The notes under the pieces are model-generated. The model searched no databases. It had not been told where the DNA came from and saw nothing but the letters and a program-made list of their open reading frames with translations. Shown here in pieces: positions 2,218 to 57,809 of a stretch of 64,000 nucleotides of DNA (position 1 is its first letter; each line of letters opens with the position of its first letter). The position numbers were made by a program, and so were the translations under genes. Source of the DNA: an uncultured bacterium (GTDB lineage Bacteria; CSSED10-310; CAZUFC01); contig CAZUFC010000014.1 of the NCBI GenBank assembly GCA_964619725.1, forward strand, positions 40,641 through 104,640, written 5' to 3'.

Positions 2218-3060
2218 TCAATCGACGTAGGTATGATATCCTTGAAACCAAGGCAGGTAATTAACTCCAAGAAAGGTAATGAGAACGGCAATGAATCCGA
2301 TGATTGCGAGGAGAGCCATTGTTTTTCCTTTGCGCTTTTTAGTCCACCCGGTATGCAGGTAAGCGGCATAGATAAGCCAGGTGATGAGGGACCAGGTTTC
2401 TTTGGGGTCCCAGCCCCAATATCTTCCCCAGGTTCTGTTTGCCCAGGCAGCGCCAGTGACGATCCCTATGGTCAGCATGATAAAACCGAGAAAAACGGCC
2501 CTGAGTGAGATATAATGTAATTTTTGAAGGTCCGGGAGCCTGGAAGCGAAGCCGGAGAATCGCTGTTCTGTTTTCATTCTCAAGAGGTAAAGGATGCTGG
2601 TCGTCATAGCTACAGCGAATCCGGCGTAACCCAGGAAGCAGCTCAGAACGTGAATATGAAGCCAGCGGCTCTGAAGAGCGGGCATCAGCGGAGTTATTTC
2701 ATCGGTAACTCCCGGTATAAGCTGAACCAGGAGGATGGACAGCCAACTGAGAGGAATGATGAAGGCGCCGAGGGCTTTCGTTTCGTATCTTCGCTCGTAA
2801 AGGAGGTAGACCAGCAGAAGGCACCAGGAGAAAAATACCGTCACTTCGTAAGTAGTAACGAGCGGCACATGACCTGTACCCAGAGCGTATGATTCAAGCC
2901 AGCGAAATCCGAAGGCAAGAGTTTCCGCTATGAATCCGACAAGAGCTGTGAGTGAAGCGGATTTTCCCCATTTAGGCCCTGCAGTGAGGAAAAAGACAAG
3001 GTAAAGATTACCTGATGCAAATAACAAAAGAATAGCGACTTCGAATAATAATTTGCTCAT
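2218..3060 (-). CDS. ccsA: Cytochrome c biogenesis system II heme-handling protein CcsA/ResC
   Basis: WWD motif WGRYWGWDPKETW, LQSRWLHIHV, multiple TM helices, C-terminal His. Confidence 0.95.
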   Translation of the reverse strand: MSKLLFEVAILLLFASGNLYLVFFLTAGPKWGKSASLTALVGFIAETLAFGFRWLESYALGTGHVPLVTTYEVTVFFSWCLLLVYLLYERRYETKALGAFIIPLSWLSILLVQLIPGVTDEITPLMPALQSRWLHIHVLSCFLGYAGFAVAMTTSILYLLRMKTEQRFSGFASRLPDLQKLHYISLRAVFLGFIMLTIGIVTGAAWANRTWGRYWGWDPKETWSLITWLIYAAYLHTGWTKKRKGKTMALLAIIGFIAVLITFLGVNYLPWFQGYHTYVD

Positions 3061-4475
3061 GCTCGTTTCCTGGGCTGATCCTGTAAAACCGACTTCAATT
3101 CACTCTTGAAATTGACGTAAAAAGTTTCCGCAGAATGACTGCGGCGACCGCTTTTTGCTGAAAACATAACCGAACCGGGAGTTTGTATCAACCAAAGTCG
3201 AATGTGAGGAACAGCGAAAAATATTACTAATCCGGCAATGAGGGTAAAACAGCCGCCCCATACGATCCACACGCCCGGATTCTTCGAAACCTGGATTCCC
3301 GTAAAGTAGATGCTTTCAGCATTAGATGTATCCAGGCCGAACTTGATTCTCGGAAGGACATCGCCATGAAAGTCGTGTTTTTCAAAGACCCAAGTTTCGA
3401 CCGCTTCGCCGTTTTGGATCAGCAGATGAGCGGCCGGATTCTCGAATTCTTCCGACTGGTTGATGAAGGCACGATCGTCGCCTACTACAAGATGCGAAAA
3501 AAGCTTCACAACGTATATCGACAAAGCGCCGTCTGAAGTCTGCAGCGAAAATTCCTCGCCCTCTCGCATTTCTTCTCTTAAGATTTCTTCACCTGATTCT
3601 GACTTTACGGCGGTCAGTATAAAATCTTTAAATTTAATACCGTATTCCGCCTGAAAAAAACGGAAGCCTTCATAATCGAGAGGCTGATTGACTTTGATCA
3701 GGGCTTTTTTCAGGGTATTGCCGTCTTTTGTAATTCTGAGCTCGCTCTTATATTGCTTAACGGAATCCCCGGCGTATTTTTCTATTTCAAACGAATCGCA
3801 ATGAACGGTGAATCCGAATTTTCGCGGGACTCCGTTTTTCATAAAAAAAATATCGGTTTTTTCGCCGACGGGAAGCCGGAACGAACCTGAGACTCCGGTT
3901 ATGCCGGATATCACGGCCCCCAGGAGGATAATCAGGAACCCCAGGTGAACGAGATAAAACGCATAGGCGGAATAACGCGCTTTTTCCCCGAGAAGAGCCC
4001 TGCGCTGTGCAACGGGGTCGTTGTATTCGGTCAATTTTACGCGTTTTTCACTCAGGAGCGCCTTGATGGAATCGAAAGCCAGTCCGGGGTCTTCGGGGGA
4101 AAGAGAGCAGAAAAACCTCTGCCTGGAAATTTGATCGTCAGCCGTTATTTCCCCTGGTTCGGCGAGCCTTTTTGCGACGCTTTTGCCGGCTCGGACCGTA
4201 CAAACGGACAGGTTGAGCGTCAGCGCCAGGACCAGCGCGATAAAGAGAGGAGAATGATACACGTCGAGGAGTCCGAAACGGTTCAGCCATTTGAAAACTT
4301 CTTCGCTGTAAACCTGCCTTATGGATTCGGCATCATAGACGGGTTCCTGCAAAATGACCGTCCCCGGTACGCTTGCGACAGCGAGAAGTATCAGCAGAAC
4401 GACGGTAGTGTAAGTAGAGCTGAAAATACGAACCGTTTTTTTTATGAGAAATTTCAATCTAGAACCCGTCGACAA
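3057..4475 (-). CDS. resB: Cytochrome c biogenesis protein ResB/CcsB
   Basis: GTVILQ, DVYHSPLF, YLVHLG, IKVNQPL, NPGVWIVWGG motifs; 4-bp overlap with ccsA. Confidence 0.9.
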   Translation of the reverse strand: MSTGSRLKFLIKKTVRIFSSTYTTVVLLILLAVASVPGTVILQEPVYDAESIRQVYSEEVFKWLNRFGLLDVYHSPLFIALVLALTLNLSVCTVRAGKSVAKRLAEPGEITADDQISRQRFFCSLSPEDPGLAFDSIKALLSEKRVKLTEYNDPVAQRRALLGEKARYSAYAFYLVHLGFLIILLGAVISGITGVSGSFRLPVGEKTDIFFMKNGVPRKFGFTVHCDSFEIEKYAGDSVKQYKSELRITKDGNTLKKALIKVNQPLDYEGFRFFQAEYGIKFKDFILTAVKSESGEEILREEMREGEEFSLQTSDGALSIYVVKLFSHLVVGDDRAFINQSEEFENPAAHLLIQNGEAVETWVFEKHDFHGDVLPRIKFGLDTSNAESIYFTGIQVSKNPGVWIVWGGCFTLIAGLVIFFAVPHIRLWLIQTPGSVMFSAKSGRRSHSAETFYVNFKSELKSVLQDQPRKRA

Positions 4476-4481
4476 GCCATT

Positions 4482-6590
4482 TCAGTTTTCTATATCGCTG
4501 GGGTCCGCATTCATCGCATCCTTGCGGGAGAGCGATATCTTGCCCTGACGATCGACGCCCAGAACTTTCACTACAATCTCATCACCTTCCGTCACAACGT
4601 CCGTGACTCTCTCCACTCGCTCATGCTTCAATTCCGATATATGAACGAGCCCTTCATAATCAGCGAAAATCTCCACAAAAGCCCCGAAATTTTTAACGGA
4701 TTTGACCGTACCACGGTATATTTTACCGACCTCAGGTTCAGCCGTCAGATATCTCACCCGTTTTTTCGCTTCCTCCATATCGGACTCGTTTTTAGCGTAT
4801 ATTCTGACTACGCCCTCATCCGTCACCTCAATATCCGTTTCCGTTACCGCCTGTATTTCCTGTATCGTCTTACCGCCGGGTCCTATCAAACTGCCGATCC
4901 GTGATTCCCTGATTCTTACCTGAGCCACTCTGGGGGCATGGCTGGACAACGATTCTCTCGGTTTTGAAATGGTTTTAGCCATCTCCGCCAAAATATGCAG
5001 ACGCGCCTCTCGCGCCTGCTCCAGCGCCTTCTTAAGAATCTCAGCCGGCAGCGCTCCGATTTTATTATCCATCTGGACTGCGGTTATTCCGTCAGCCGTG
5101 CCGCACACCTTAAAATCCATGTCGCCCAGATGGTCTTCATCTCCCAGAATATCAGTCAATATAACGGTTTTTTCACCTTCTCTGATCAGCCCCATAGCCA
5201 CGCCTGCAGCGGGTTTCTTTATGGGAACGCCGGCATCCATTGCAGCCAGCGAACAGCCGCAAACAGTCGCCATGGATGATGAACCGTTCGATTCGGCGAT
5301 ATCGGATACTATTCTGACGGTGTAAGGAAAATCATCCTCACCCGGCATCAGCTTTTCCACGGCCCTGGTCGCCAGGTTCCCATGCCCTATTTCACGACGT
5401 CCCGCGCCTCTCAAGGGCCTGACTTCGCCCACCGAATAAGGCGGAAAATTATAGTGCAAATAAAAACGATGCCCTTCTTCTCCAAACAGGGTATCTTCCC
5501 TCTGTTCATCACGGGTCGCGCCCAAAGTGCAACTGACAAGCGCCTGAGTTTCCCCGCGAGTAAAAACCGCGGAACCGTGAGCTCCCGGAAGCCAGCCTAC
5601 TTCCGTTTCAATGGGCCGGACCGTCTCGGCGTTTCTGCCGTCTATTCTTGTTCCTTCATCGGTTATCATTTTACGGATCATGTCATGTTTCATCTTTGAA
5701 AAAATATCGCTTATCTTTTTTTCATCGCCGGCATCCCCCTCTTCCGTTAACAAATGCTCCACTATCTCTTTAAACAAATTGTCCAGCGCCAGGTACCGCT
5801 CCTTTTTCACAGGCTCTGTCACGGCTTCTCGAAGTCTGCTTTCGGCAAATTCCTTCACCCTCTTTTCAAGCTCTTCATCCCACCGCGCCCGTGTCCATTC
5901 TCTCTTTTCACAGCTCGCTTTGCCGCGCCATTCGTCCAGCCGCTTTATCGCCGGCGCCGCCGCTTCTTCAGCAGCTTGAAGAACATCCGCAAAATCCTCT
6001 TCGGAAACCTCGTCAGCCTCGCCTTCAACCATTATCATTCCGTCCGGACCCACGGAAATGACTATATCGATTAAAGCCCCTTCTCTTTGCGAACGCGCAG
6101 GATTTACGATCAACTCCTCATCGGGAGTTTTTATCACGCGCATTCCTATCACGGGTCCGGCCCACGGTATATCGGACAAATGTAAAGCCGCGGCAGCTCC
6201 ATTCAAAGCGCAAATGTCGGGATCAACTTCAGCATCCGAACTCAACACCGTAGCGATTACCTGCGTATCCTGAAGATAATCCTCCGGAAACAGAGGCCTG
6301 ATCGACCTGTCTATGATCCGGCACGTCAGTACCTCATGATCGGACGCCCGGCCCTCCCGTTTGATGTATCCCCCGGGAATTTTGCCCGCTGCAGCCGCCT
6401 TTTCCCGGTATTCCACGGTCAAAGGAAAAAAATTCATCCCCTCCTTTACATCCTTCCTGGAAGATACTGCTGTCACCAGAATAACCGACTCGCCCGCCTT
6501 TACCACGACCGACCCGTCCGCCTGTCTGGCGATGCGGCCTGTCTCCATTACGTATTCTGCACTTCCAATCTTTATCGTCTCCTGCATCAT
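4482..6590 (-). CDS. pnp: Polyribonucleotide nucleotidyltransferase (PNPase)
   Basis: FFPLTVEYRE, FTRGETQAL, RREIGHG, SNGSSSMA, DHLGDMDFKV, KH and S1 domains. Start moved to 6590 because of the SD GAAGGAG and a promoter -10 abutting ATG 6629. Confidence 0.97.
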   Translation of the reverse strand: MMQETIKIGSAEYVMETGRIARQADGSVVVKAGESVILVTAVSSRKDVKEGMNFFPLTVEYREKAAAAGKIPGGYIKREGRASDHEVLTCRIIDRSIRPLFPEDYLQDTQVIATVLSSDAEVDPDICALNGAAAALHLSDIPWAGPVIGMRVIKTPDEELIVNPARSQREGALIDIVISVGPDGMIMVEGEADEVSEEDFADVLQAAEEAAAPAIKRLDEWRGKASCEKREWTRARWDEELEKRVKEFAESRLREAVTEPVKKERYLALDNLFKEIVEHLLTEEGDAGDEKKISDIFSKMKHDMIRKMITDEGTRIDGRNAETVRPIETEVGWLPGAHGSAVFTRGETQALVSCTLGATRDEQREDTLFGEEGHRFYLHYNFPPYSVGEVRPLRGAGRREIGHGNLATRAVEKLMPGEDDFPYTVRIVSDIAESNGSSSMATVCGCSLAAMDAGVPIKKPAAGVAMGLIREGEKTVILTDILGDEDHLGDMDFKVCGTADGITAVQMDNKIGALPAEILKKALEQAREARLHILAEMAKTISKPRESLSSHAPRVAQVRIRESRIGSLIGPGGKTIQEIQAVTETDIEVTDEGVVRIYAKNESDMEEAKKRVRYLTAEPEVGKIYRGTVKSVKNFGAFVEIFADYEGLVHISELKHERVERVTDVVTEGDEIVVKVLGVDRQGKISLSRKDAMNADPSDIEN

Positions 6591-6630
6591 TTTCCGTCGC
6601 TCCTTCGCAAAAGTTGAATCAAACGTCATG

Positions 6631-6825: not shown

Positions 6826-9800
6826 TCAGCGATTTTTGCGGTATGAACGTCTCAGGACGAATCCGAGACCGCCGAGAAGCATTATGATGCCAAGCGGCGT
6901 CGTCGCAGGAATCGACACGCCTTCACAACTTACGTTCAGAATACCCATACCGGTACTGGAACTGTAGCCGCCGACTTCGATCAGATAAGTCTGACCTACA
7001 TCAGCCACAAAAGTAACCTGAGATTGCAACTCTCCGCCAAAGTCATCATTACTCGCTATTATCTCCCCGACAGGATCGCACGTGCAACCTTCGTAAACGG
7101 CCAGTTTCGTGTCGTACATACTTCCCAGGAGACTCACTGTGGCAAGTACCGAATCTCCGGAACAGGTCGGCGTGTAGCAGTACCAGACATTGGGACTGGT
7201 AATGTAATCGCCCGGTCCGTCTGCAGTAGCGCACATCGTGTTGAAGGGCATATCGACCACCTCATTAATGGCCGTGGCATTGGCGCAATCGTCGTTTGCA
7301 GGCAATTCGTCGATGGAGAAAATAAAGTCGTTGATGCAGTCAGGCGACGGCCAGGTGTCGATCATTACGTAATAGGTTCCTGCGGTGAAGCTGTAGTCGA
7401 ATCCGACATTGCTTCCAGTACTTGTGTTGTAATCCAGGCACGGATCAGCCGGCGGACATTCGTCATCTATCGCCATTCCGATCCAGGAAGCGTCTGTAAT
7501 CAGCGAAAGGCACGCTGACACGTCTTCCGTCACGGTGATCTGATAAATGATGTCTTCGCCGCCGTCATAACTGCCCAGACAGGTTTCAGAATAATCGTTC
7601 ACGCGTCCGCATGTGGTATTCTGGTTCGCAAAGGGCATCTCAGCCGGTATGGTCACAGGGAAAGGATCGGTACAGTCATCGCCGCCCATGAAGGGACAGG
7701 TGTATTCGGGGCATGTTTCGCCTTCGAACCACCATCCGTTCATCGCATCGCATTCAGGTTGCGTATTGGTTTCAACGCATACCGAGTCTACGCAGCATGC
7801 TCCTGTTGGCGGAGCGGTGCATTCAAGCGAGAATGCGTATTCCCAAGGACCCAGGGCACATGGATAGCCTTCAAACACGGTGGGGGCGATGAAGAACCAG
7901 TGCGTGCCGGCTCCCAGGTCGACCTCAACGCTGATCTCTTCACAAGGCTCTCCTGTAGCGTAAGGGTCCAAGCTCCCCAACAGATAGGCGCAATCGCCGG
8001 CGCCCGGCGGGTCTGTCGGAACGTACCCGATTATCACGTCGAATTCGGCTTCGGCCGTCATGGTTACCGTGTAAGGTTCCGTCAACACCAGTTCATACCA
8101 GTCGGTGTCTCTGGTCGAGTCCTCAGCCCAAGCGTTGCCGCAGTAAATGTCTCCGCATTGAATCGAGGTGAATACGGGCGGCGTCGAGTTACAGCCGCCG
8201 TTGGTGTCCTCACCGCAAGCTTCGCCTTCATCCAGTCCGCCCATCGGGCAAGGCACTACACAGGGTATGCATTCTGCAATGGTTAAGTCGAATTCCGGGA
8301 TGCAATCAGGAGAAGGGTATGTATCGATCATCAGGTAGTAGGTTCCGGCTGTGAAGTTCATGCAATCGCTGGAGTAAGGATCGCTGAGGTAGCTGTTATT
8401 CTCATTAATGATGCATTCAGTATCCGGCGGACAACTGTCGTCGACAGCGAAACCGGTCCAGGTCGTTCCCAACGGGTCTAATGAGAACTGTAAATAAGTG
8501 TCTGCAGTCACGTTCAGCATGTAAATGATGTCTTCGCCGCCGTCGTATGAGCCCAGACAGGTTTCTTCGTAATCATTCAACCGGCCGCAGGTGAAATTAG
8601 TATCCATGTAATCCAAGTCTGCAGGAATATTCACCATTATCGGGGTCGCACAATCATTTCCCGAAGGATCGGGGCACTGGAATTCCGGGCATGTTTCGCC
8701 TTCAAACCACATTCCGTCCAGGGCATCGCATTCGAATTCAAAGTTGGTCGCCGTGCAAACCTGATCAACGCAGCAGGCGCCCAGGGCCGGTTCGCAATTC
8801 GGCGGGTCCTGACAAGCCGTTGCGTCATCAGAAACGTCTAACTGAAAGACCCCGTATGACGAAGAGCTGAAACCGCCGACAGTGATGTAGTAAGTTTCGC
8901 CCAAATCAGAGCAGAACGAATAAGTGGAGAGCAATGAATCATAATCAACGCAGTCGTCATCGTTGCCGCCCACGCAGATCAGGTAGTCGCAGGAATAGCA
9001 GAATACGCTGATCTTGCTGTCGAATTCCGACACATCGTTGCACGTGGTCACCGTTATGGTATTTCCTGTGCCCGTAACCGTATACCAGACGTTCTTGTAA
9101 GGTCCGGAATACACTCCGCAAGGTTCCGCTATATCGTCCGTGGCCCAGGTGTTGTCGCCGCTCACCGAAGCAGGAAGCGTTCCCACGTCGATAGCGCCGT
9201 CGCAGTCGTCATTGGGCGGAGGCGGTTGCGGACAGGGATTCGGATCGCAGACTTCGCCGGGCAACCAGTTGCCGGGTCCGTAAAGTCCGTCGCAAGTCGC
9301 TATGTCCGTAACCGAACATTCGCCGGTGGAAGGATTACAGCAGGCGCCGTCCGTTATGGTCTCACACGTCAACGAAGCCTTGTAATCCCAGGGACCGTCC
9401 GCACAGGCGTATCCATCGTATACCGAAGGAGCGACAAAGAACCAGTAAGTTCCCGGCATAACGTCGACTTCTACGAATATTTCTTCACAGGGCTCGCCGA
9501 GAGTATAAGGATTGAGATATCCCGTCGAATCAGCGCAGTCGCCGCTGCCCGGAGGATCGGTTTCTATCATACCGATGACCACGGGAAGTTCGGCTTCCGC
9601 CGTCCATGTGAATGAGGTCGGCTCCGTCACTACTACTTCATACCAGTCCGTATCACGCGTTCCTTCACTCGCATAAGATTTCCCGCAGTATAAATTGCCG
9701 CATTGCAGGCTCGTGAACACCGGCGGTGAGGCATTGCAGCCGCCGTTAGTGTCGTCGCCGCAAGGTTCGCCTTCCTGAATGCCGCCGATCGGACAATTGA

Positions 9801-11277
9801 CGATGCAGGGACAGGGATTCGGATCGCACGTTACGCCGGGATGCCAGTTGCCGGCGCCGTATGTCGTGAAACACCACGTTTCCGTCGTGTCCGGATAACA
9901 ATTTCCCGTATTGGGATCACAGCACGCGCCCAGTCCGCATGCAGGTTCAAGTTCGCTGCAGAGCGTATCCATGGCGAAACGCAACGGCGGTTGGCACGCT
10001 GACATGTCAACCAGATCATTACATGTTCCCGTGGAATCGTCACAGCAGGCCCCTGTCGGATCAACCCACTCAGGCGTCAAACAGAACGAACGATCACGGA
10101 GCGTTGAATCCAAAACCGTTCCGTCCCACTGCAGCGAATCGCCGTCGCCTATGGGTGAACTTCCCCACAATAACCAGCACGTTGAATCGCCCGCGCCTTC
10201 TATCGATACCCAACCGGCGCTCAACTGACAGCAGGGATGTATGCCGGCGCTGAAATAATAAAGCGGATAAACGTCGGCATACAGGTACCCCGTATCCTCA
10301 ACCAAAGGCGTAACCGTGGTTTCACACACTACAGCCCCAGGAACTCCGCCGTCATCGGCATAAAACGTTACGTCATACACCTGCGGGTCTTTGTAGCACG
10401 TCGTCCAACCAGCGTCATAAGCCAGGTTCATTCCCCACCAGTGAATATCGCATATAGGCGATTCCACTCCTGAGAAATTGTCATACACGACATATCCAGG
10501 TGAGACGTCGCTCGTGGCGAACGACCAGGCATCATCCGGCCCGTCCACTGGCTGCGAATACAGCGAATCAAGCGGACACGGCATCGGCGGGTCCCAGGCC
10601 TGACCTTCCGTTACTTCGAGCGTATACGTTCCGGAATTGGTTCCGAAACCGTCTACTACGATATAATAGGAATTTCCGCCCGTCAAAGTCACGCCGGTCA
10701 CTTCTGAAACATAGCTCGAATAATAAGGAGCGCTGCAGGCGTCGTCGCTGCAGGCGAAATAGTTGCCGGGGTCCGGACATGTGTTCTCATAAACATACAG
10801 CTTTGTATCATAATCCGTATCGCCGACGCACAGCGTTATGTCCACAATGACTTCGGCAGCGGGGGTGTACACATAGACCACATCCGGAGCCGTCGAACCT
10901 GTATATGGACATACTTCGTCGTAGTCGTTAACATATCCGGTTGTCGTCCCCGTATCCGCGTAAGGCAGACTCGTTATCGCCAATGCTTCCGCACATGTGT
11001 CGCCGCCCTGGCGAGGTCCGTTCATGTCATAACCCTTCTCCTGCAGTCTCGCTCTCTCTTCCTTCGTCACGGGCTTCGACAATCCTGCAGTCACAGGATT
11101 AACCGGACTCGCCTTTATTGAATTCGATTTAACATTTTCTACTTTGTTCTTATCGATCGTCGTTTTTACCGTATTGATTGCATTCGCCGTCAAATCAACT
11201 TTTCCGGCGAATACCGTCGGCAACGCCATTATCGATATTACCAACATTAAAGGAATTAAAACCTTCTTCACTTCCAT
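6826..11277 (-). CDS. Large secreted Cys/Asp-rich repetitive surface protein (GACC repeats, PPC-like beta-sandwich modules) with a C-terminal sorting tail
   Basis: Signal peptide; 5x GACC; duplicated modules (EGExCGxDTNGGCN; TCGRxNDYxETCLGSYDGGEDIIY); ends IPATTPLGIIMLLGGLGFVLRRSYRKNR. Confidence 0.9.
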   Translation of the reverse strand: MEVKKVLIPLMLVISIMALPTVFAGKVDLTANAINTVKTTIDKNKVENVKSNSIKASPVNPVTAGLSKPVTKEERARLQEKGYDMNGPRQGGDTCAEALAITSLPYADTGTTTGYVNDYDEVCPYTGSTAPDVVYVYTPAAEVIVDITLCVGDTDYDTKLYVYENTCPDPGNYFACSDDACSAPYYSSYVSEVTGVTLTGGNSYYIVVDGFGTNSGTYTLEVTEGQAWDPPMPCPLDSLYSQPVDGPDDAWSFATSDVSPGYVVYDNFSGVESPICDIHWWGMNLAYDAGWTTCYKDPQVYDVTFYADDGGVPGAVVCETTVTPLVEDTGYLYADVYPLYYFSAGIHPCCQLSAGWVSIEGAGDSTCWLLWGSSPIGDGDSLQWDGTVLDSTLRDRSFCLTPEWVDPTGACCDDSTGTCNDLVDMSACQPPLRFAMDTLCSELEPACGLGACCDPNTGNCYPDTTETWCFTTYGAGNWHPGVTCDPNPCPCIVNCPIGGIQEGEPCGDDTNGGCNASPPVFTSLQCGNLYCGKSYASEGTRDTDWYEVVVTEPTSFTWTAEAELPVVIGMIETDPPGSGDCADSTGYLNPYTLGEPCEEIFVEVDVMPGTYWFFVAPSVYDGYACADGPWDYKASLTCETITDGACCNPSTGECSVTDIATCDGLYGPGNWLPGEVCDPNPCPQPPPPNDDCDGAIDVGTLPASVSGDNTWATDDIAEPCGVYSGPYKNVWYTVTGTGNTITVTTCNDVSEFDSKISVFCYSCDYLICVGGNDDDCVDYDSLLSTYSFCSDLGETYYITVGGFSSSSYGVFQLDVSDDATACQDPPNCEPALGACCVDQVCTATNFEFECDALDGMWFEGETCPEFQCPDPSGNDCATPIMVNIPADLDYMDTNFTCGRLNDYEETCLGSYDGGEDIIYMLNVTADTYLQFSLDPLGTTWTGFAVDDSCPPDTECIINENNSYLSDPYSSDCMNFTAGTYYLMIDTYPSPDCIPEFDLTIAECIPCVVPCPMGGLDEGEACGEDTNGGCNSTPPVFTSIQCGDIYCGNAWAEDSTRDTDWYELVLTEPYTVTMTAEAEFDVIIGYVPTDPPGAGDCAYLLGSLDPYATGEPCEEISVEVDLGAGTHWFFIAPTVFEGYPCALGPWEYAFSLECTAPPTGACCVDSVCVETNTQPECDAMNGWWFEGETCPEYTCPFMGGDDCTDPFPVTIPAEMPFANQNTTCGRVNDYSETCLGSYDGGEDIIYQITVTEDVSACLSLITDASWIGMAIDDECPPADPCLDYNTSTGSNVGFDYSFTAGTYYVMIDTWPSPDCINDFIFSIDELPANDDCANATAINEVVDMPFNTMCATADGPGDYITSPNVWYCYTPTCSGDSVLATVSLLGSMYDTKLAVYEGCTCDPVGEIIASNDDFGGELQSQVTFVADVGQTYLIEVGGYSSSTGMGILNVSCEGVSIPATTPLGIIMLLGGLGFVLRRSYRKNR

Positions 11278-16984: not shown

Positions 16985-17021
16985 ATTTGCCGGCGTCCCC
17001 TGCTGGAATGAGGTGATGGGC

Positions 17022-17663
17022 ATGATTGAAATTGAAGAAACGGGCGAAACGCCAGAATCGGCTTTACAAAAAATCCTGGAAAATGTGAACTTGGATGAAA
17101 GAGATGTAAAATATGAAGTCCTGGAAGAAGGCAGAAAAGGACTGCTGGGATTCGGGAAAAAGGAGGCGCGCGTCAAGGTCAGTTATGAACCGGCTGACCT
17201 GGCCCAGAAGGAGGCAAAAAACATATTGCTGACCATTCTCAATAAAATGAACATCCAGGCCGATGCCGAAGCCTTCGAAAAAGAAGGCAGAATTCATCTC
17301 GACATAAAAAGCGAACAGAACAACCGCATCATAGGCAGAAAAGGAAGGACCATCGATGCATTGCAGCACATCGTCAATCGAATGGTCAACCGGCGCATCG
17401 ACGAGAAAATGATCCTCATCATCGATGCTCAGAACTACAGGGAAAGAAAACGGGATAAATTAACGTCCATGGCATTGCGCATGGCCGAAGAAGCCAAAAA
17501 AAAGAATAAAACGCTGACCTGCCCCCCTTATGCTCCCTTTGACAGGCGCATTATCCACCTCGCCCTGCAGAAAGACCCCCTTGTTAAAACGGTCAGCAAA
17601 GGGGACGGTTACCTGCGAAGAGTATTAATCAGTCCTGCAAAACAGAAAAGAAATCGCCGCTGA
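17022..17663 (+). CDS. jag: RNA-binding protein Jag/KhpB/EloR (Jag-N, KH, R3H)
   Basis: GLLGFGKKEA, IIGRKGRTIDALQ, DRRIIH. Start placed at ATG 17022 after the SD GAGGTG. Confidence 0.93.
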   Translation: MIEIEETGETPESALQKILENVNLDERDVKYEVLEEGRKGLLGFGKKEARVKVSYEPADLAQKEAKNILLTILNKMNIQADAEAFEKEGRIHLDIKSEQNNRIIGRKGRTIDALQHIVNRMVNRRIDEKMILIIDAQNYRERKRDKLTSMALRMAEEAKKKNKTLTCPPYAPFDRRIIHLALQKDPLVKTVSKGDGYLRRVLISPAKQKRNRR

Positions 17664-23956: not shown

Positions 23957-25897
23957 TTGAAAAAATCGGGACGTTCGAAAGTAACTGGGATATTGTTCTC
24001 GGTAATTCCTGTATTTTTCTTAGCTTTCAGCAGTACGGGATCAGCCTATGTTTTAATTGATGAATTGTATTACGATCACCCAGGCACGGACCTCGGTTAT
24101 GAATATGTCGAGCTTTACAATACCGGAACATCCGCCGTTAATCTGGACGGCTGGCGCATTCAATGGGCCGGGACCGATTTCACGCATGCGGAATATCAGA
24201 TTACCGGTAACTATTGGATTGAGGGGGGCGGTTATTTTTTGATCGGAGGTTCTAATGTGCACGGGGTATTCGGCGTACCGCCCGATATAGTTCATAATTT
24301 TGATCCTCCTTTCCAGAATTCAGGTACAGAAACAGACGGCGTGCGTATAATCAATGATCTGGACCCTTTCACCTGGTCCGACACGGTGCTGTATGGAACT
24401 CCGAACAGCAACAATCTTCCGAAAGACATTAACGGGCCTCCTGCGGACGACGATGAGTGTGCGCCTGATGTGGAGGAAGGGCAGAGTTTATCCCGGTTGG
24501 CATCCCATATCGATTCTCAAAACTGCAGGCTTGATTTTCAAGTGCTGGCGAACCCGGACCCCCAATCGGGCGTTACAGGAACGCCCACTCCGACGCCGTA
24601 TCCCGTATACCCCATCGATCCCGGCGCCGTCTTAATCAGCGAAGTCATATACAATCCCGACGGCGGAGACACGGACAGCGAGTGGTTGGAGCTTTACAAC
24701 ACTCTGGATGAAGACGTGAACCTGGCGGGCTGCACGATACAAAGCGGCGGAACGACGTTTGCTCATAATGTGACCATTACGGAAGGGATTATTCCGGCGA
24801 ACGGTTACTTTTTCCTTTATGAAGGTTTGGTTTCGCCTCCTGCAGGACCGAACAAACTCCAGGTGAATTTTGATCCGCAGTTCCAGAACGGCGAGGATGT
24901 CGCGGACGGCATAAGGCTGCTGGATTCTTTCCAGGTTGTCGTGGACACGATTCTTTATGCATCCGACAACAACGGCAGCGAATTGCCCGATGACGATGAC
25001 GATCCCGCCCCGGATAATGAGGTTGCCCCTCCTGTAAATGCGGGCTGGGCGCTGGGCCGTTGTCCCTCATCAGGTTCCGATACGAATAATTCGGCGATTG
25101 ACTTCTGGCCTGTAGCGCCCGCGGATATAACCAAGAACGGTCCGAACATATGCGTGCCGCCGTCCGTCACCCCCACGCCGACAGATACGCCGGAAGCTAC
25201 GTTGACTCCGACCGCGACCCCCACCTGTTTCATCGAAGCGGGCGCTGTCGTGATTAATGAGTTGATGCCGAATCCTGACGGTTCAGACGATGGCCGGGAA
25301 TGGCTGGAAATTGTGAATCTTTCCGATGAAGCCATAGACCTTTCAAATTTTATTGTGGAAAGTTCAACCGGCAGCAATGACGCTTTTGAAGAAAGTTTCG
25401 TCCTGCCCGACGATGCCGGCTCAATGACGCTTAATCCCGGCGAATACATGCTCATAGCCGAGTCAGGCGTCGACGTCTCCTCGGTTCCCGGAACGACTTC
25501 GATTTATCAACCTATGGACAGCGGAGGACTCAACATTGACATGCAAAACGGAGGCAGTCATTCGGAAGGTCTCCGTCTCCGATGCCCCTCAGGAGGCATG
25601 GTCGTCGATACCGTGATCTATTCCTCACCCAATTCCAACGACATCCAGGGCGATGCAGGAGACCCCTATGGGCAATCACCCGCCCCTGAACCCGAATCTG
25701 GAAAAACGCTGGCGCGACTCCCCGACGGCTCCGATACAGACGTCTGCCAGGTCGATTTTCAGAATGTCGGACCAGATAAAATTACTATGGGCTTCTCCAA
25801 CGATCAGGTTCTGCCCGCTACCGGTCTCGCCTCCTTGCTGGTCCTGCTCCTGAGCGTCACAGCGCTCCTGTTCTTTGGAACAAAAAAAGGACATTGA
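23957..25897 (+). CDS. Secreted protein with three lamin-tail (LTD) domains, PT linkers and a C-terminal sorting tail
   Basis: Three repeats of (L/V)I(D/S/N)E..Y/M.P.G.D..E(Y/W).E(L/I); ends LPATGLASLLVLLLSVTALLFFGTKKGH; SD AGGAGG before TTG. Confidence 0.9.
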   Translation: MKKSGRSKVTGILFSVIPVFFLAFSSTGSAYVLIDELYYDHPGTDLGYEYVELYNTGTSAVNLDGWRIQWAGTDFTHAEYQITGNYWIEGGGYFLIGGSNVHGVFGVPPDIVHNFDPPFQNSGTETDGVRIINDLDPFTWSDTVLYGTPNSNNLPKDINGPPADDDECAPDVEEGQSLSRLASHIDSQNCRLDFQVLANPDPQSGVTGTPTPTPYPVYPIDPGAVLISEVIYNPDGGDTDSEWLELYNTLDEDVNLAGCTIQSGGTTFAHNVTITEGIIPANGYFFLYEGLVSPPAGPNKLQVNFDPQFQNGEDVADGIRLLDSFQVVVDTILYASDNNGSELPDDDDDPAPDNEVAPPVNAGWALGRCPSSGSDTNNSAIDFWPVAPADITKNGPNICVPPSVTPTPTDTPEATLTPTATPTCFIEAGAVVINELMPNPDGSDDGREWLEIVNLSDEAIDLSNFIVESSTGSNDAFEESFVLPDDAGSMTLNPGEYMLIAESGVDVSSVPGTTSIYQPMDSGGLNIDMQNGGSHSEGLRLRCPSGGMVVDTVIYSSPNSNDIQGDAGDPYGQSPAPEPESGKTLARLPDGSDTDVCQVDFQNVGPDKITMGFSNDQVLPATGLASLLVLLLSVTALLFFGTKKGH

Positions 25898-27620: not shown

Positions 27621-27765
27621 TTCAGCAACGGATTATCATTTATATTCCATGGAATTAATTTGTTGTTTAGGTAAAAAAGAGATCGATACGGACAGAATAA
27701 CTTGAAACGGGCGGAAAGAAGGCGAAGCCGGAACTTTCCGCCAGAAAAACCATAAAGGAGGCAAC

Positions 27766-28155: not shown

Positions 28156-28174
28156 TCTATAGGAAAAGGATATT

Positions 28175-29524: not shown

Positions 29525-29671
29525 CATTAGCCGTTCGTCTCGACTGCACGGCATGCTGCCGAACCTGACCGGCTGTTTTTCGGGACCATTTCACATCGAC
29601 ATGGCTTGCATGCTTTTTCCGTAAACAAAAAAACAACAATTCCTGCAAACCGGGAGGAATCAATAAAGCTC

Positions 29672-49889: not shown

Positions 49890-49911
49890 AAAATCAGGGA
49901 GACCTTTAACT

Positions 49912-51584: not shown

Positions 51585-54500
51585 TTAAAGCGATTCCGTT
51601 CTTCTTTTAACGAGCAAAAATGCAATAAGCGTAATCAGCAGCAGGAGTCCGGCGGGTTTTGCGGCGGGAACTGAAGCGGGAGTGAAAGTGGGAACGGGCG
51701 TGGGATTGGGATTGTATCCGTCCTGAGAGTATTTCCAGGCATCATCGAAGTAGCAGCCTTCGCCGGCGCCGCCGAATAACAATGTGTAATTCATTTCAGG
51801 ATTATACGCCATTTCGATTTCGCATCTTACTTCAGGAGAATGTTCGGGACTTTCCTGATTCCATTCGGCATTTACTCCGTCCCAGGTCCAGGTATGGTTG
51901 GTGAAATCGCCGTTCTGGTCTGAACCGCCGAATAATATGCATTTCTGGAGTTCATCGTCATAAGACATGGCGCCGTTAGCGAGAGGACCAGGCGATGAAC
52001 CATCTTTTCTTAATACCCAGTTGCAATCGGCGGCATTTGAGTCACCATAGCTGCAATGCAATTCCCAGGTATCGTCCAGTTTTTCTGAACCTGCGCAACC
52101 TCCATAGAGAACGACGCAGTTACGATTTTCATCGTAGGCCGTCATGGGTTCAGTTCTGGGTGAAGGAGAATCCTCCGTATCGATAAGAGACCAGTTTGTG
52201 CCGTCCCATTGCCAGGTATCGTTCAGAGCGGAGCCTCCGTTCCACCCGCCGAAAAGAATAACGGTTTCGGTGTTCGGGTCATAAACCATTTTGTGGTGTC
52301 TGCGTGCACAGGGACTTGTGTTCGGTTGCTTCAGCAGCCAGGACGAACCGTCGAATTCCCAGGTATCGCTGTAGTAACCGCCATACCCCGTTATGCTTCC
52401 CCCGAAAAGCACGGTAACGCCTTTTGATGCATCATAAGCAGCGGCAGCACAGAGTCTGCAGGCAGGCGATTCGTTCAAACCATCGAGAAGTATCCAGTTT
52501 TCAGCCGCCGTATCGAATACCCAGGTGTCGTTAAGTGAGTTGATTCCGTCAACCGATCCGCCGAACAACAGAAACTCATTGTTTGCCTGATCATACGTCA
52601 GAATGTTCTCAGCTCTTGCGGAGGGATACTGGTCTGGAAAAATCTGATGCCAGTCGTAGATTGTTTGATCGGCAGGTCCGTAAATATCATCGATCCATTT
52701 TTCCTGCCAGCCGCCGATATGGTCCTGGAATTCCAGCCGGAAGTAATTGGATGTCGTGAATTCATTATCGGTCGCCGACATGCAGAGGACATCGTCGATG
52801 TAAACAAAGAAGCTTCCGTCAAAAGTCCTTTCAATTCTGCAATGCCGCCAGGTTCCCAGATCGAAGCCTTCACCGGTGTAATAGGAATCCAGTTCAACCG
52901 TTTCGCCGCCGACCTTCTTTCGTAAAAACCAGGTTCGGCAGCAATCCTGATGACCGCAGGGTTCGCCGTGAACCAGTTCGTAAAAGTTGTCGGAATCAAG
53001 ATGAATGAAATGGACATGACGGAAGGAATAATGCCCGTCGCCCTCAACCTTGGTGCGCCATTTCCAGCATCCGTAAGCCGCTGTTTGCGGAATCTGAAGT
53101 ATCCCCGCTCCCGGATTCGGCGCCGGCCCGTTGTATCGCAACGCCCCGGAAGCCGCGCTCCAGTATGAGCAGCCCTGGATGCATCCCCATGATGGATTCG
53201 ACGTCCAGTCCCCGTCGGAAAAATCATCGTATTTTTGGAAGTCGCAGGGGAATGGGGTCGGGACTCCCGTCGGTGTGGGAATAACGGTGGGTACATATGT
53301 CGGTGTAGGAGACGCCTCTGCCGGTCCATAAATATCATCAATCCATTTTTCCTGCCAGCCGCCGATATGGTCCTGGAATTCCAGCCGGAAGTAATTGGAT
53401 GTCGTGAATTCATTATCGGTCGCCGACATGCAGAGGACATCGTCGATGTAAACAAAGAAGCTTCCGTCAAAAGTCCTTTCAATTCTGCAATGCCGCCAGG
53501 TTCCCAGATCGAAGCCTTCACCGGTGTAATAGGAATCCAGTTCAACCGTTTCGCCGCCGACCTTCTTTCGTAAAAACCAGGTTCGGCAGCAATCCTGATG
53601 ACCGCAGGGTTCGCCGTGAACCAGTTCGTAAAAGTTGTCGGAATCAAGATGAATGAAATGGACATGACGGAAGGAATAATGCCCGTCGCCCTCAACCTTG
53701 GTGCGCCATTTCCAGCATCCGTAAGCCGCTGTTTGCGGAATCTGAAGTATCCCTGCTCCCGGATTCGGTGTTGGCCCGTTGTATCGCAGCGCCCCGGAAG
53801 ATGCGCTCCAGTATGAACAACCCTGGATGCATTCCCATGATGGATTCGATGTCCAGTCGCCGTCGGTAAAATCGTCGTATTTTTGGAAGTCGCAGAGGAA
53901 TGGGGTCGGGATTGCCGTCTCTGTCGGTATAAGAGTTGGAGTATTCGTGGGAGCGGGTGTCGGCGTCGGCGCTTCGCAATTGTATTCCCAGGTGTCCCCA
54001 ATATCACTAACGCTGTTCTGACCGCCGAACATCATCATTATCTCGTTGCAGGAATCATAAGCTAATCCTAAATCCGTTCTTATGGGAGGAATTGTCGCCG
54101 GTTCTTCTTCCACCCAGGTATTGCCGTCCCAGGTCCAGGTGTCATTAGACGGTCCGTTATCGGTCGTTCCCCCGAACAACACGCATAAATTACGGTTCGA
54201 GTCGTAAATCATTCTGCCGTCGTTTCTGGCCGGCGGAACAGAGCCTGTCGGATATTTTTGCTGCCAATCGCTTCCGTCATATTCCCAGGTATCGTCTAAA
54301 TACACGCCGCCATTAGAACCACCAAAAAGCGCCGTCACACAACGTTCTTCATCGAAAGCCATCATGGGCTCAGCACGCGGACCGGGTGAACCAACCGTCG
54401 TTATTAGCGTCCAATCGGACCCGTCCCATTCCCACGTTTCATTATTGTAACCGCCGCCGTTCCATCCTCCGAACATCACGACGACTCCCCGACAACTGTC

Positions 54501-57500
54501 GTAGACCATCCGGTGATGCCGACGGGGATATGGATTCGTATCCGGGGAAATCTGGGTCCAGTTCGTTCCGTCATATTCCCAGGTGTCGTTGTAATACCCC
54601 CCGTAACCGTTCGTGCTGCCGCCGAAAAACACAGCGACGTCTCTTGTGGAATCATAAGCCATGCCGTAGGCGATCCGCGCTGAAGGTGAAGCGGAAGTAT
54701 TCTTTTCTGTCCATGTTCCGGTACTGACGTTATACTCCCAGGTATCGGCATACGATTGAGTTCCGCCTTCATAACCGCCGCCGAACAAAACGCATACGCC
54801 GCGATAATCATCATAGACGATCTTAATCTCATGTCTTGCATCTGGAGAGGTCGAGGGAAACTGCTCTTCCCAATCACAACTCATCATAGCAGGGGTACCC
54901 GTCGACACTGGGGTACAAGTCGGAAGCTGCGGCGTTTGAGTCGGCAAATAGGGAACGAATGCCTGCACTCTGTAGTTTCCGCCGTTGCCGCCGTCGGACA
55001 GGAACACTCTTCCATCCGGAGCTTCAGCCATTTCAGACGGTCGCCAGTAAAATTCCTCCGGATCGCTGCCCTGGTAATCGTACCCTATTTCCGTTACAAG
55101 GTTCCAAGCGGAATCATATTTTCGCGCTTTGTATTCAGTTCTCGTCCAAAAATTACCTTCATCGTCGATAAACAGAAGCGATTCGCCATAAGCGGGTCTT
55201 CTCCAGCCGGTATCGACACCGGCATTAGTAAATTTTGCAAACTCATCCCCCCCGACGCTAAGGTAAATGTATCCGTCTGGTGAGGCATGAATGTCTCCGC
55301 CGGCCTGCCCGGTATCCGTTACAATATATTCCCTGACGAATTGACCCTCCGTATTGTAAACAACGACTTTTCGATCGACGGCAATGCTTATTTGAAGGTT
55401 ATGATCACTGTCCATCGTCATTCCCGCCGACCAGTAGGGTATGGATACCGGCACGCTCCAGACGAGCTGTCCGTCCAGGGTCCATTTTTTGATGCCGCCC
55501 GGAGGAACCAACTGGTAAAGATGGTCTGCGTAATATTCAAGCTGAGCGCCGTAACCGCTGTTCACGATCCATTCGGGTACGCAATTGCAGTCGATGTCCC
55601 ATTTTTTCAATTTCTGATTGCCGTAATCGGCCACATAAACATAACCGTAATCGTCCAATGCGATCCCTCGCGGACCCAGATCGCTTCCGAATTCACACGG
55701 CCCCGATCCCAATGACCCGAATTCACACAGGAATTGATACAGCCTTAAAGGGGTAGCGGTAGGAGGCGCCGTCGTTTCCGGCGTTATCGTCGGCGTCGGC
55801 GTTTCCACCGGCGTTTCGGCGGCGGTGGGTTCGGGGGTCTGGGTATTCGTAGGAGGCGGAGAATTCGTCGGAGTTATCGGAGTGTTCGTAGGTCCGGGTG
55901 TGGGCGTAGTCAGTTCGGAATAAACGTCAATGTACATTTCATAGTACCCTGAACTGAAAATCTCAGAATTCCGGGCCCTCATATCGATAACTTCTGTTCC
56001 CGTATCCAGCATAATCTGAATCAATCTTCCGTCCTGCGTGAGAGCCGGTATATCGGAGACGTTCCATTCGAGCGTGAATCCGTCATCCGAGTCGACCCCC
56101 AACAGCCAGGAGGTTACCAGGTCCCAGTCTGGAATATTTTTGATATCTCGCCGCAGACGATTGAAAGCCGGATCATCACAGTCAAAGAACGCATCCAGAG
56201 GCGGATTCATTCCCGGCGGCGGCAAAGGCATATCAAGTCCGCTGTCGTAATCTTCCGAACCTTCCGGATGAACTCCCCATTCCAGGTCGATCGGATCGAC
56301 TATGGGATCGTCGCTTGTTATCAAAACAGGCTCAAGCCAACCGACAGCGTATTCATGATGAGACGAAGGAGCGAATTCAGGATCAAAACTTGTATTGGGC
56401 GGATTCTGAAGATCGCTTGCAGATATATAATACCATACGACTGTACCCAGTTCCTGTTCAGGAATGGAAACCGCAAATTCATCGGGATACCCCGTCCATT
56501 CCATCAGAGCGTTCGTCCAGTTAAACCCTTCATCCGTGCTGGAATAAACGAAAAGTGCATTCGTATCCAGGTCGCCGTCTACATCGGTTATGATCGCGGT
56601 TATGTCGCAAGCTGTGACTGCAGGTTGAATGAATGTCGCCGTCGTATGCTGTATCGCGGGCGGAACGCCGGAAGATTGAGACGTCGGCGTTATCGTGGGC
56701 AGAGGAACGAGTGTCGAAGTCGGTTCCGGCGTTGCTGTGGGTTCTCCCGAAACCTTCCTGGCGTATTTCAGGTTCTTATTTGTGTCGTCATAATAGCAAA
56801 TGTGGGGTTTCCCTTCACTGTCAAGCGCCAGAGAACAATATTTCCCTACATTGCCGTCGCAATCTACGGTTTCTTTCTGCCAGGAGCTGCCGGTATAGTA
56901 AGCCGTTTTCAGGCAGCCGTTATGTTGATAGCTGATCAATGGTCTGTTGCTCTCGTCGATAACCAATGATGAATAACCCGGCCCTTCTGTTTCAATTGTA
57001 AATTTCTGCCAGGCGCTGCCGTTGTAGTAAGCGTATTTTAATGTGTTTGAATCCCATTTATAACTGACGTGAGGATGATCATATTCGTCGAGTTCCATTG
57101 ATATGTATCCAGCATCGCTGCCTGCCGTATCGACCTGCTGCAGTTGCCAGCTTGAACCGTTGTAATAAGCATACTTTATTGCGCCATACCGAAATTCGCT
57201 GTAAATAATGTGAGGTCTGTTCTGGGAATCGACATTAATTGCCGTCCATGAGCCGTAATTGTATTCCGCAGGATCCTCTATTGTTTCTACCTGCCAGGAG
57301 CTGCCTGTATAATGAGCGTATTTCAGGTGAGGATAAGGGTTACCGGGATCGTCGTGGGCATAGTAGCTTATATGAGGACGTCCATATCCATCCAGCGCTA
57401 TGGAAGTATTTTGGCCGACATATCCCGGCGCATCGACGGTTTCGACTTGCCATGTCGAACCGTTGTAGTGAGCGTATTTCAGATCTTTTTCCGAACCGTA

Positions 57501-57809
57501 ATAATAGCTGATGTGCGGATTATCGTAGATGTCAAGAACAATGCTCGTACAGTAAGAACTTACATCGTCGGCGCTTTCCTTTACCCATTCGTCGCCGTTG
57601 AATCGCGCATAACGAAGACTGGGATAACCGAAACTGTAACAGCAATGAGGCCTGTCGAACGAATCCAGCGCCAGAGAACAGTGTTGACCGAAAGTATTCT
57701 CGTCTTCAACGATTTCGGTAACCCAATAATCGGCTGAACATCGTGATGCATGAATCCATGCCGTTAAAATTAATACAAGCGCCGTTAGAAAAATAATCTT
57801 TCCTTTCAC
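51585..57809 (-). CDS. Giant secreted multidomain protein (beta-propellers, NHL, two Kelch-like sets, duplicated ConA-like module, PT linkers) with a C-terminal sorting tail
   Basis: PHISY/LKYA repeats, GPRGIALD..YVYVADYGN, LFGG...DTWEYD repeats; ends VPAAKPAGLLLLITLIAFLLVKRRTESL. Confidence 0.92.
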   Translation of the reverse strand: MKGKIIFLTALVLILTAWIHASRCSADYWVTEIVEDENTFGQHCSLALDSFDRPHCCYSFGYPSLRYARFNGDEWVKESADDVSSYCTSIVLDIYDNPHISYYYGSEKDLKYAHYNGSTWQVETVDAPGYVGQNTSIALDGYGRPHISYYAHDDPGNPYPHLKYAHYTGSSWQVETIEDPAEYNYGSWTAINVDSQNRPHIIYSEFRYGAIKYAYYNGSSWQLQQVDTAGSDAGYISMELDEYDHPHVSYKWDSNTLKYAYYNGSAWQKFTIETEGPGYSSLVIDESNRPLISYQHNGCLKTAYYTGSSWQKETVDCDGNVGKYCSLALDSEGKPHICYYDDTNKNLKYARKVSGEPTATPEPTSTLVPLPTITPTSQSSGVPPAIQHTTATFIQPAVTACDITAIITDVDGDLDTNALFVYSSTDEGFNWTNALMEWTGYPDEFAVSIPEQELGTVVWYYISASDLQNPPNTSFDPEFAPSSHHEYAVGWLEPVLITSDDPIVDPIDLEWGVHPEGSEDYDSGLDMPLPPPGMNPPLDAFFDCDDPAFNRLRRDIKNIPDWDLVTSWLLGVDSDDGFTLEWNVSDIPALTQDGRLIQIMLDTGTEVIDMRARNSEIFSSGYYEMYIDVYSELTTPTPGPTNTPITPTNSPPPTNTQTPEPTAAETPVETPTPTITPETTAPPTATPLRLYQFLCEFGSLGSGPCEFGSDLGPRGIALDDYGYVYVADYGNQKLKKWDIDCNCVPEWIVNSGYGAQLEYYADHLYQLVPPGGIKKWTLDGQLVWSVPVSIPYWSAGMTMDSDHNLQISIAVDRKVVVYNTEGQFVREYIVTDTGQAGGDIHASPDGYIYLSVGGDEFAKFTNAGVDTGWRRPAYGESLLFIDDEGNFWTRTEYKARKYDSAWNLVTEIGYDYQGSDPEEFYWRPSEMAEAPDGRVFLSDGGNGGNYRVQAFVPYLPTQTPQLPTCTPVSTGTPAMMSCDWEEQFPSTSPDARHEIKIVYDDYRGVCVLFGGGYEGGTQSYADTWEYNVSTGTWTEKNTSASPSARIAYGMAYDSTRDVAVFFGGSTNGYGGYYNDTWEYDGTNWTQISPDTNPYPRRHHRMVYDSCRGVVVMFGGWNGGGYNNETWEWDGSDWTLITTVGSPGPRAEPMMAFDEERCVTALFGGSNGGVYLDDTWEYDGSDWQQKYPTGSVPPARNDGRMIYDSNRNLCVLFGGTTDNGPSNDTWTWDGNTWVEEEPATIPPIRTDLGLAYDSCNEIMMMFGGQNSVSDIGDTWEYNCEAPTPTPAPTNTPTLIPTETAIPTPFLCDFQKYDDFTDGDWTSNPSWECIQGCSYWSASSGALRYNGPTPNPGAGILQIPQTAAYGCWKWRTKVEGDGHYSFRHVHFIHLDSDNFYELVHGEPCGHQDCCRTWFLRKKVGGETVELDSYYTGEGFDLGTWRHCRIERTFDGSFFVYIDDVLCMSATDNEFTTSNYFRLEFQDHIGGWQEKWIDDIYGPAEASPTPTYVPTVIPTPTGVPTPFPCDFQKYDDFSDGDWTSNPSWGCIQGCSYWSAASGALRYNGPAPNPGAGILQIPQTAAYGCWKWRTKVEGDGHYSFRHVHFIHLDSDNFYELVHGEPCGHQDCCRTWFLRKKVGGETVELDSYYTGEGFDLGTWRHCRIERTFDGSFFVYIDDVLCMSATDNEFTTSNYFRLEFQDHIGGWQEKWIDDIYGPADQTIYDWHQIFPDQYPSARAENILTYDQANNEFLLFGGSVDGINSLNDTWVFDTAAENWILLDGLNESPACRLCAAAAYDASKGVTVLFGGSITGYGGYYSDTWEFDGSSWLLKQPNTSPCARRHHKMVYDPNTETVILFGGWNGGSALNDTWQWDGTNWSLIDTEDSPSPRTEPMTAYDENRNCVVLYGGCAGSEKLDDTWELHCSYGDSNAADCNWVLRKDGSSPGPLANGAMSYDDELQKCILFGGSDQNGDFTNHTWTWDGVNAEWNQESPEHSPEVRCEIEMAYNPEMNYTLLFGGAGEGCYFDDAWKYSQDGYNPNPTPVPTFTPASVPAAKPAGLLLLITLIAFLLVKRRTESL
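52675..53912. repeat. Intragenic tandem duplication, period 648 bp (about 590-bp unit)
   Basis: 52741 aagtaattgg recurs at 53389; the protein module CDFQKYDDF...WIDDIYGPA is repeated. Confidence 0.97.

Follow-up and report, generated by a model that had tools for sequence, protein, structure and literature searches.

A greatly expanded C-terminal sorting tail in an uncultured CSSED10-310 bacterium, probably a drifted variant of IPTL-CTERM with a divergent exosortase H

We examined a 64,000-nucleotide stretch of DNA (hereafter the window; G000:C14:40641-104640) from the genome of an uncultured bacterium (G000; assembly of 9.17 Mb, 47% GC, 90.9% complete, 6.5% contaminated), focusing on a C-terminal tail carried by three of its predicted surface proteins. 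The tail consists of a short motif, a hydrophobic helix and a basic end, and very probably functions like a surface signal sorted by an exosortase. We interpret it as a drifted, Trp-poor and greatly expanded variant of IPTL-CTERM, and its enzyme as a single short, divergent exosortase H (XrtH) encoded with a downstream membrane protein; we assign this reading a probability of roughly 0.8. By cut-off and by signature, the G000 system is not a formal member of the IPTL-CTERM/XrtH pair. Nor does it represent a sorting system of a new kind. A tripartite signal is found on many unrelated exported proteins, and the genome encodes an exosortase that exceeds its family cut-off and retains Cys, Arg and His. 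XrtH and IPTL-CTERM are already catalogued as curated models.

The preliminary description of the window had noted three tails of 28 residues on exported proteins that are otherwise unrelated. Translation confirms the tails at the stated coordinates and the 28 residues from motif to stop in each; tails 1 and 3 are on the minus strand, which that description did not state, and tail 2 is on the plus strand (Table 1). All three hosts have signal-peptide-like N-termini in translation, and no domain is common to them (pairwise BLASTP best E-values of 0.11 and 0.54, with no match for the third pair).

The tail signal is real at the scale of the genome and far beyond chance. In a set of 5877 non-overlapping open reading frames (ORFs) of at least 100 aa, called in this analysis from G000, we defined a strict tail as [IV]P[AST] together with a hydrophobic helix within the last 55 residues. 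Strict tails occur on 220 ORFs. As controls, 20 shuffles gave 1-11 each, and sets of internal windows, also 20 in number, gave 3-12. Tail 2 of the window begins with Leu and so falls outside this set. Of the 160 proteins of at least 500 aa that finish with a single C-terminal helix and basic residues, 142 have the strict motif. The 217-protein tailed set sums to 227,339 aa, about 7.4% of the assembly; 79 of these proteins exceed 1000 aa and the largest reaches 12,076 aa. By a crude heuristic, a hydrophobic N-terminal stretch is present in 181 of 208 tailed proteins versus 1935 of 4714 others. A mixed-bin artefact is unlikely, given that the tails are spread over 120 contigs with GC contents of 43-53%, that the GC content of the enzyme contig (46.6%) matches that of the window contig (47.4%), and that the enzyme contig itself has a tailed gene.

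Ile/Val1 and Pro2 are conserved by definition of the tail set. The other conserved columns are position 3 (Ala, Ser or Thr in 67, 22 and 10% of tails), Gly8 (77%), Leu12 (73%) and a Lys/Arg-rich end. Residues 4-7 vary widely, with Leu4 in only 22% of tails, Pro6 in 36/220, Trp7 in 8/220 and TL at positions 3-4 in 6/220. A Pro/Thr/Ser-rich linker lies ahead of the motif in 155 of the 220 tails. Thus the small residue seen at position 8 of the window tails holds across the genome. The [ILV]PA[TA] motif and the fixed length read from the same three tails are small-sample effects: the motif fits 40/220 tails, position 4 is not confined to Thr or Ala, and motif-to-stop lengths range from 23 to 47, with 28 in only 36/220 (three equal lengths have a chance of about 1%).

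The tail is in the same register as IPTL-CTERM (TIGR04174, PF18203), with [IV]P at positions 1-2, a small residue next, Gly at position 8, and then a helix and a basic end. It differs in having Ala rather than Thr at position 3, and in mostly lacking Leu4 and Trp7. The preliminary description had likewise placed the tail closest to IPTL-CTERM but without its TL..W core, and this is true of most of the population: the IPTLxxWG signature is not found in the G000 tails as a set, although Gly8 is kept. The pairing of XrtH with IPTLxxWG-CTERM is taken from source labels.

As the preliminary description had suggested, we scanned the proteome with a profile of the tail. Half of the tails served as its training set, from which the three in the window were excluded, and the threshold was 12 bits. 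It recovered 106 of 109 held-out tails. From 5657 other ORFs it picked out 22, the majority apparently ending in variant tails, and we therefore place the total at about 220-245 tailed proteins. Window tails 1, 2 and 3 score 23.8, 17.1 and 25.8 bits. A 1264-aa protein (G000:C35:2262-6056) has an IPEF-type tail that looks closer to PEP/PEF-CTERM; only one exosortase was found.

The preliminary description saw no recognizable sortase or exosortase in the window; an XrtH-type exosortase gene and its partner gene lie outside it (Table 1). The exosortase exceeds the family cut-offs of PF09721 (35.5-37.5 bits; cut-off 25.7) and TIGR04178 (65.7-67.9 bits; cut-off 23). Its best subfamily scores are 78.2 bits for ArtB (TIGR04144; cut-off 150) and 76.6 bits for XrtH (TIGR04177; cut-off 86). 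We found no second exosortase in the assembly, weaker matches all being below cut-off and several having internal stops. Cys96, Arg137 and His156 are invariant in 30/30 aligned rows. This agrees with a report (bioRxiv 2023.06.07.544157) in which exosortases and archaeosortases are proteases of the Cys/Arg/His type, divided into subfamilies that serve different signals.

A downstream gene encoding a 214-aa membrane protein overlaps the exosortase gene. On the other side, with the exosortase facing away from it, is the gene of an 876-aa protein that carries the tail. The partner resembles an XrtH-associated type of membrane protein, judging from its language-model features and gene position. Its top match in the language-model atlas scored 0.95, with 229/256 features in common, and in each of the three best clusters 30-68% of members carry PF28117 (XrtH_assoc). 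NF041730 was matched weakly by two of five phylum partners tested (E 0.35-0.36), and its cut-off was not reached by the partner or by six related partner proteins; gene position and language-model features agree with an XrtH-associated protein. A predicted complex of enzyme and partner scored 0.68 versus 0.00 for the best control, with at least 76% of contacts shared between runs and a partner pLDDT of at least 72, and this supports a heterodimer; enzyme residues 165-170 lie in the modelled interface. A mark of this type is reached by 116/157 solved and 2/215 mismatched pairs, a calibration that applies only roughly here as the alignments were made for this analysis. When the enzyme model alone (pLDDT 93) was searched with Foldseek, it had no PDB match at E≤0.001; the lack of a solved relative of the enzyme makes it less likely that the complex model merely reproduces a known structure. 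A weak profile match between partner and enzyme (probability 29.5%), and a match of the partner of a second G002 enzyme (L126 / L030, G002:C517) to the XrtH model at E 2.9e-5, hint that the partners may derive from exosortases; we treat this as a lead only.

[quoted passage not shown] An orthologue is present in all 13 same-phylum genomes, compared with a distant match in one of 27 unrelated genomes. A profile built from 40 tails gave, at E≤1, 3-42 matches in each of the phylum genomes versus 0-4 in the unrelated ones. The preliminary description had inferred a lineage-specific signal, and the tail is indeed a lineage-expanded one. The number of substrates (about 220-245) can be set against at most 17 TIGR04174 matches (E≤1) in 18 outside genomes, counts that come from different models.

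Tails and enzymes of other genomes form a continuous series that joins the G000 system to IPTL-CTERM, and the change looks gradual. TIGR04174 is passed in 4/13 same-phylum genomes and in 10/18 outside genomes. Tails of G001 and G004 are IPTL-like with Trp, and the best-scoring readable tails of other phylum members are without it. Trp is not needed to pass TIGR04174, since it is missing in 7/15 readable over-cut-off tails outside the phylum. In outside XrtH genomes, the best matches of our own tail profile are at the same places as those of TIGR04174. On the enzyme side, TIGR04177 matches 32 of 401 genomes at E≤1e-8 and is passed in 10; orthologues pass in 2/13 other phylum genomes (G002, 88.9 bits; G004, 87.4 bits). 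Outside the phylum, G057 encodes an enzyme 50.5% identical to that of G000 that passes the XrtH cut-off (96.6 bits) and adjoins a tailed gene, and its tails are of the IPTLTEWG type, over the IPTL-CTERM cut-off. In a 41-row tree, the phylum orthologues and G057 form one group (support 95/94). A further G002 enzyme that passes the XrtH cut-off falls outside the phylum clade and has a separate partner. Plasmid records annotated as XrtH numbered three, two of them carrying the annotation XrtM, and were left out of the comparison.

The preliminary description proposed an undescribed system, to be refuted if the tails passed an existing model whose known enzyme is present. The window tails score below all cut-offs, but two other G000 tails and tails in the four phylum genomes just mentioned pass IPTL-CTERM, so that this refutation is partly realized; an undescribed system with no enzyme is not supported.

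Several observations weigh against our interpretation. None of the window tails passes a curated cut-off in NCBIfam or Pfam; tail 2 matches no sorting-signal model in either, and the best window tail on the PEP-CTERM model scores 15.1 (cut-off 16). Across the genome, TIGR04174 is passed at only two places (122 candidates scored) and PF18203 at none (120 candidates scored). Of 40 randomly drawn good tails, one matches TIGR04174 at E≤10 and several unrelated tail models match 1-3; because these models match about as many tails as TIGR04174 does, model scores alone cannot assign the family. The exosortase is 9 bits under the XrtH cut-off and has a marginally higher raw score on ArtB, and the partner itself has no NCBIfam or Pfam match. 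Because the enzyme is universal in the phylum, co-occurrence there does not distinguish it from other core genes, and related genomes do not count as independent observations. In G019 and G077, an over-cut-off XrtH is accompanied by no tail match with either model. The exosortase tree is midpoint-rooted and was built without ArtB, XrtX or XrtY rows, and five of its six rows source-named exosortase H fall outside the orthologue group. A second enzyme could be absent from the assembly, because the genome is 90.9% complete. No XrtH or IPTL-CTERM experiment was found in the searchable literature.

Other known sorting systems were considered and rejected. For LPXTG and sortases, LPxTG occurs in 0/220 tails and the 90.9% complete genome has no PF04203 match; one protein with an internal tail scores 16.0 on TIGR01167 (cut-off 15.9), a match confined to the helix (model positions 12-33). 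For GlyGly-CTERM and rhombosortase, GG precedes the helix in 13/220 tails, and all five rhomboids score 24.7-41.7 (cut-off 84). PEP occurs in 0/220 tails, and the sole exosortase, at 190 aa, has no XrtA match, the XrtA type calling for an eight-helix exosortase. Cys is found in positions 1-8 of only 9/220 tails, which argues against MYXO-CTERM and other Cys-type signals; no search was made for CPBP-family proteases. VPXXXP-CTERM (TIGR04143) with ArtB is closer, sharing the [IV]P start and a similar length and having the top raw score for the enzyme. However, none of 115 candidates passes TIGR04143, Pro6 is uncommon, the ArtB cut-off is not approached, and ArtB is archaeal by name.

These comparisons bear on the explanation nearest to ours, in which the enzyme is correctly identified but forms with its tail a separate subfamily between XrtH and ArtB, with a name of its own, that does not process classical IPTL tails. 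The enzymes of 12/14 phylum genomes are below the XrtH cut-off, the ArtB score is as high as that of XrtH, Trp7 is rare, and in the tree the orthologues group in a supported clade that excludes five of the six source-named exosortase H rows. Yet that clade includes over-cut-off enzymes (G002, G004, G057 and P0040), and the G004 and G057 genomes have classical tails. The ArtB cut-off is distant, VPXXXP-CTERM is passed nowhere and Pro6 is in a minority of tails. With an XrtH_assoc-like partner and a change that looks gradual, we consider a separate subfamily unlikely.

Two other explanations would leave the exosortase out altogether. In a plain, uncleaved inner-membrane anchor, a conserved [IV]P and Gly8 would be superfluous, yet some 220 unrelated proteins have them, and proteins of up to 12,076 aa would be unlikely to remain in the periplasm. 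Cutting by a housekeeping rhomboid, with the exosortase doing something else, could draw on the five rhomboids present, none of which is rhombosortase-like. Although we infer cleavage from relatives and residues 4-7 vary widely, a tailed gene adjoins the exosortase operon in both G000 and G057, and an anchor or rhomboid substrate seems to us quite improbable. Least credible, and highly improbable, is processing by an unrelated, categorically new sortase. The tails mostly escape curated models, co-occurrence was examined for the exosortase rather than for all gene families, and an unexplained second C-terminal domain in G000 (below) makes some unknown export machinery likely. But the continuous series ties the tails to IPTL-CTERM, and every phylum genome examined has an intact XrtH-type operon. 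A drifted IPTL-CTERM variant with a divergent exosortase H thus remains our preferred interpretation.

Under this interpretation, the N-terminal signal peptide would export each protein across the inner membrane, where the tail helix and basic end, from their anatomy, would arrest its transfer and retain it. The exosortase, probably paired with its partner in a heterodimer, would then cut near [IV]P..G by its Cys-Arg-His triad. The model for this step is archaeosortase ArtA of Haloferax volcanii, an experimentally studied relative whose PGF-CTERM tail is likewise tripartite; it differs in its motif and archaeal host, and the G000 enzyme scores 38.4 on the ArtA model (cut-off 75). According to PMC7157517, cleavage and lipid attachment by ArtA need PssA and PssD, and the substrate HVO_0405 is cut centrally. 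By analogy, the new C-terminus would probably gain a lipid such as phosphatidylethanolamine; a phosphatidylserine decarboxylase gene is present in G000. Exosortases and archaeosortases appear to leave their substrates membrane-anchored, according to PMC11980579, and PMC12188702 gives the route across the outer membrane as unknown even for CrtB. In G000, six Omp85 and seven secretin matches substantiate the diderm cell plan assumed in the preliminary description. A GspD-type secretin lies in a cluster that, from its sequence, appears to be gspF-M. Proteins would most plausibly reach the surface through a type II secretion system.

Seven ORFs have an internal tail followed immediately by a second signal-like helix. 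Three of these (on contigs C64, C203 and C171) look like fusions, in which an exported domain with its tail continues in frame into another signal peptide and another exported protein. In the other four (C10:17419-18711, C126:13080, C155:14892 and C226:1528), the tail and helix are inserted within a CarboxypepD_reg-type domain; in the C226 copy, an in-frame stop follows the module. Mid-protein XrtH signals are already known to curators as midcut-by-XrtH (NF033207), in which a mid-protein tail is likewise followed by a second hydrophobic helix. Of the five internal-tail proteins scanned, four match this model weakly (E 0.004-0.19; 11.8-17.2 bits, cut-off 45) and the fifth does not match. The four inserts differ from it in splitting a single transthyretin-like domain rather than lying between two domains. 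The split-domain form was not found in the searchable literature. The split module has matches in 10/13 phylum genomes, and G057 has one as well. The 150 representatives listed in a wider search were mostly intact repeat proteins, with 10 new full-length split modules among them.

An AlphaFold model of the split module, built from a 14-row alignment, has a pLDDT of 84.6 (two of five models only 65) and contains two strands, two helices and five strands. It superposes on 81/82 residues of the carboxypeptidase D transthyretin-like domain across residues 1-132 (Z 11.7, rmsd 2.0), and Foldseek agrees. Because the superposition spans these residues, the strands before and after the hairpin are predicted to make one domain. 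Sequence profiles gave no significant score for the N-piece in the 14 sequences; it is solely in the structure model that the halves come together. This model might reflect no more than a common fold, and the protein, left uncut, could be folded in this way as a membrane protein anchored by its hairpin. A nearly invariant Cys stands just ahead of the putative second cleavage site, where an xYA sequence could be cut by signal peptidase I or the Cys could instead be lipidated.

We tentatively propose, as a conjecture we rate at somewhat less than even odds, that XrtH-type enzymes are heterodimers with a non-catalytic partner and that in this phylum a tail inside a domain serves to cut and clip, providing a non-covalent anchor for tail-less cargo. 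The tail and second signal-like helix would be inserted after the first two strands of the transthyretin-like domain; the exosortase would cut and anchor an N-piece of about 25 residues, and signal peptidase would free the large C-piece, both pieces staying folded as one domain. Cleavage would greatly change the size of the split-domain proteins, as was the case for HVO_0405 with ArtA, and together with the modelled enzyme-partner interface these proteins make the proposal cheaply testable. More broadly, nearly all tailed proteins of G000 are missed by the current model, and a widened one would extend annotation to the surface proteome throughout an uncultured phylum. The 220 natural substrates also define the tolerance of the enzyme, which appears to ask only for [IV]P, a small residue and Gly8.

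G000 encodes a second type of C-terminal domain of about 120 residues, which ends 207 of the 217 proteins that carry it (e.g., L118:3358-3747), none of them in the window. None of the 217 has a strict tail. The domain has matches in 10/13 phylum genomes (47 to at least 150 copies) and in 0/12 outside; it has no Pfam match over cut-off and no atlas match at 0.9. In paralogues of window proteins 2 and 3, this domain stands at the C-terminus in place of the tail. Several large acidic proteins without a tail (L119 and others) end in a cohesin-like segment, a weak match to PF00963 (E 0.07).

Table 1. Locations of the tails, their host proteins, the exosortase gene and the internal-tail genes. Plain positions refer to the window; other locations give the genome, contig or locus.
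Feature	Location	Strand	Description
Sorting tail 1	6826..6912	-	IPATTPLG, helix and basic end; 28 aa plus stop
Sorting tail 2	25811..25897	+	LPATGLAS, helix and basic end; most deviant of the three
Sorting tail 3	51585..51671	-	VPAAKPAG, helix and basic end; Pro/Thr linker in front
Protein 1	6826..11277	-	1483 aa, acidic, exported, 6.5% Cys, no assigned domain; tail at end
Protein 2	23957..25897	+	646 aa, exported; three lamin-tail domains (PF00932, E 8e-44, three stretches), Pro/Thr linkers; tail at end
Protein 3	51585..57809	-	2074 aa, exported; Kelch-type propellers (Pfam Kelch, E down to 1e-77), NHL repeat, Pro/Thr linkers; tail at end
Exosortase	G000:C134:12955-13527	-	190 aa; sole exosortase-family gene over cut-off
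Fusion-type internal tails	L114:194-3235; G000:C203:1-9159; G000:C171:6391-15444		C203 and C171 genes open at contig ends
Split-domain loci	L112:123-1412; L113:184-2385; L111:193-1443; L110:129-518		

Protein 1 of the window has no NCBIfam match at E≤10 and no Pfam match over cut-off. It contains repeated Cys-Cys modules and has a 529-aa paralogue (C5:13318-14907; 54% identical over 462 aa) that ends in a variant tail. Protein 3 holds two near-identical blocks of about 190 residues on the minus strand (approximately 52650-53900), which may be a recent duplication or an assembly artefact. Directly upstream of protein 3, a 1973-aa exported protein (57866-63787, minus strand) combines clostripain-family, CARDB, P-domain and fn3 domains; this protein lacks the tail, and a pair of short, similar repeats forms its end. 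Elsewhere in the window are what we take to be genes for cytochrome c biogenesis and PNPase (2218-6629), YidC and Jag (15212-17663), the glycine cleavage system (26502-31177), a transglutaminase-like/DUF58 pair (33053-36361), and a 2-hydroxyacyl-CoA dehydratase with its activator (48609-50658).

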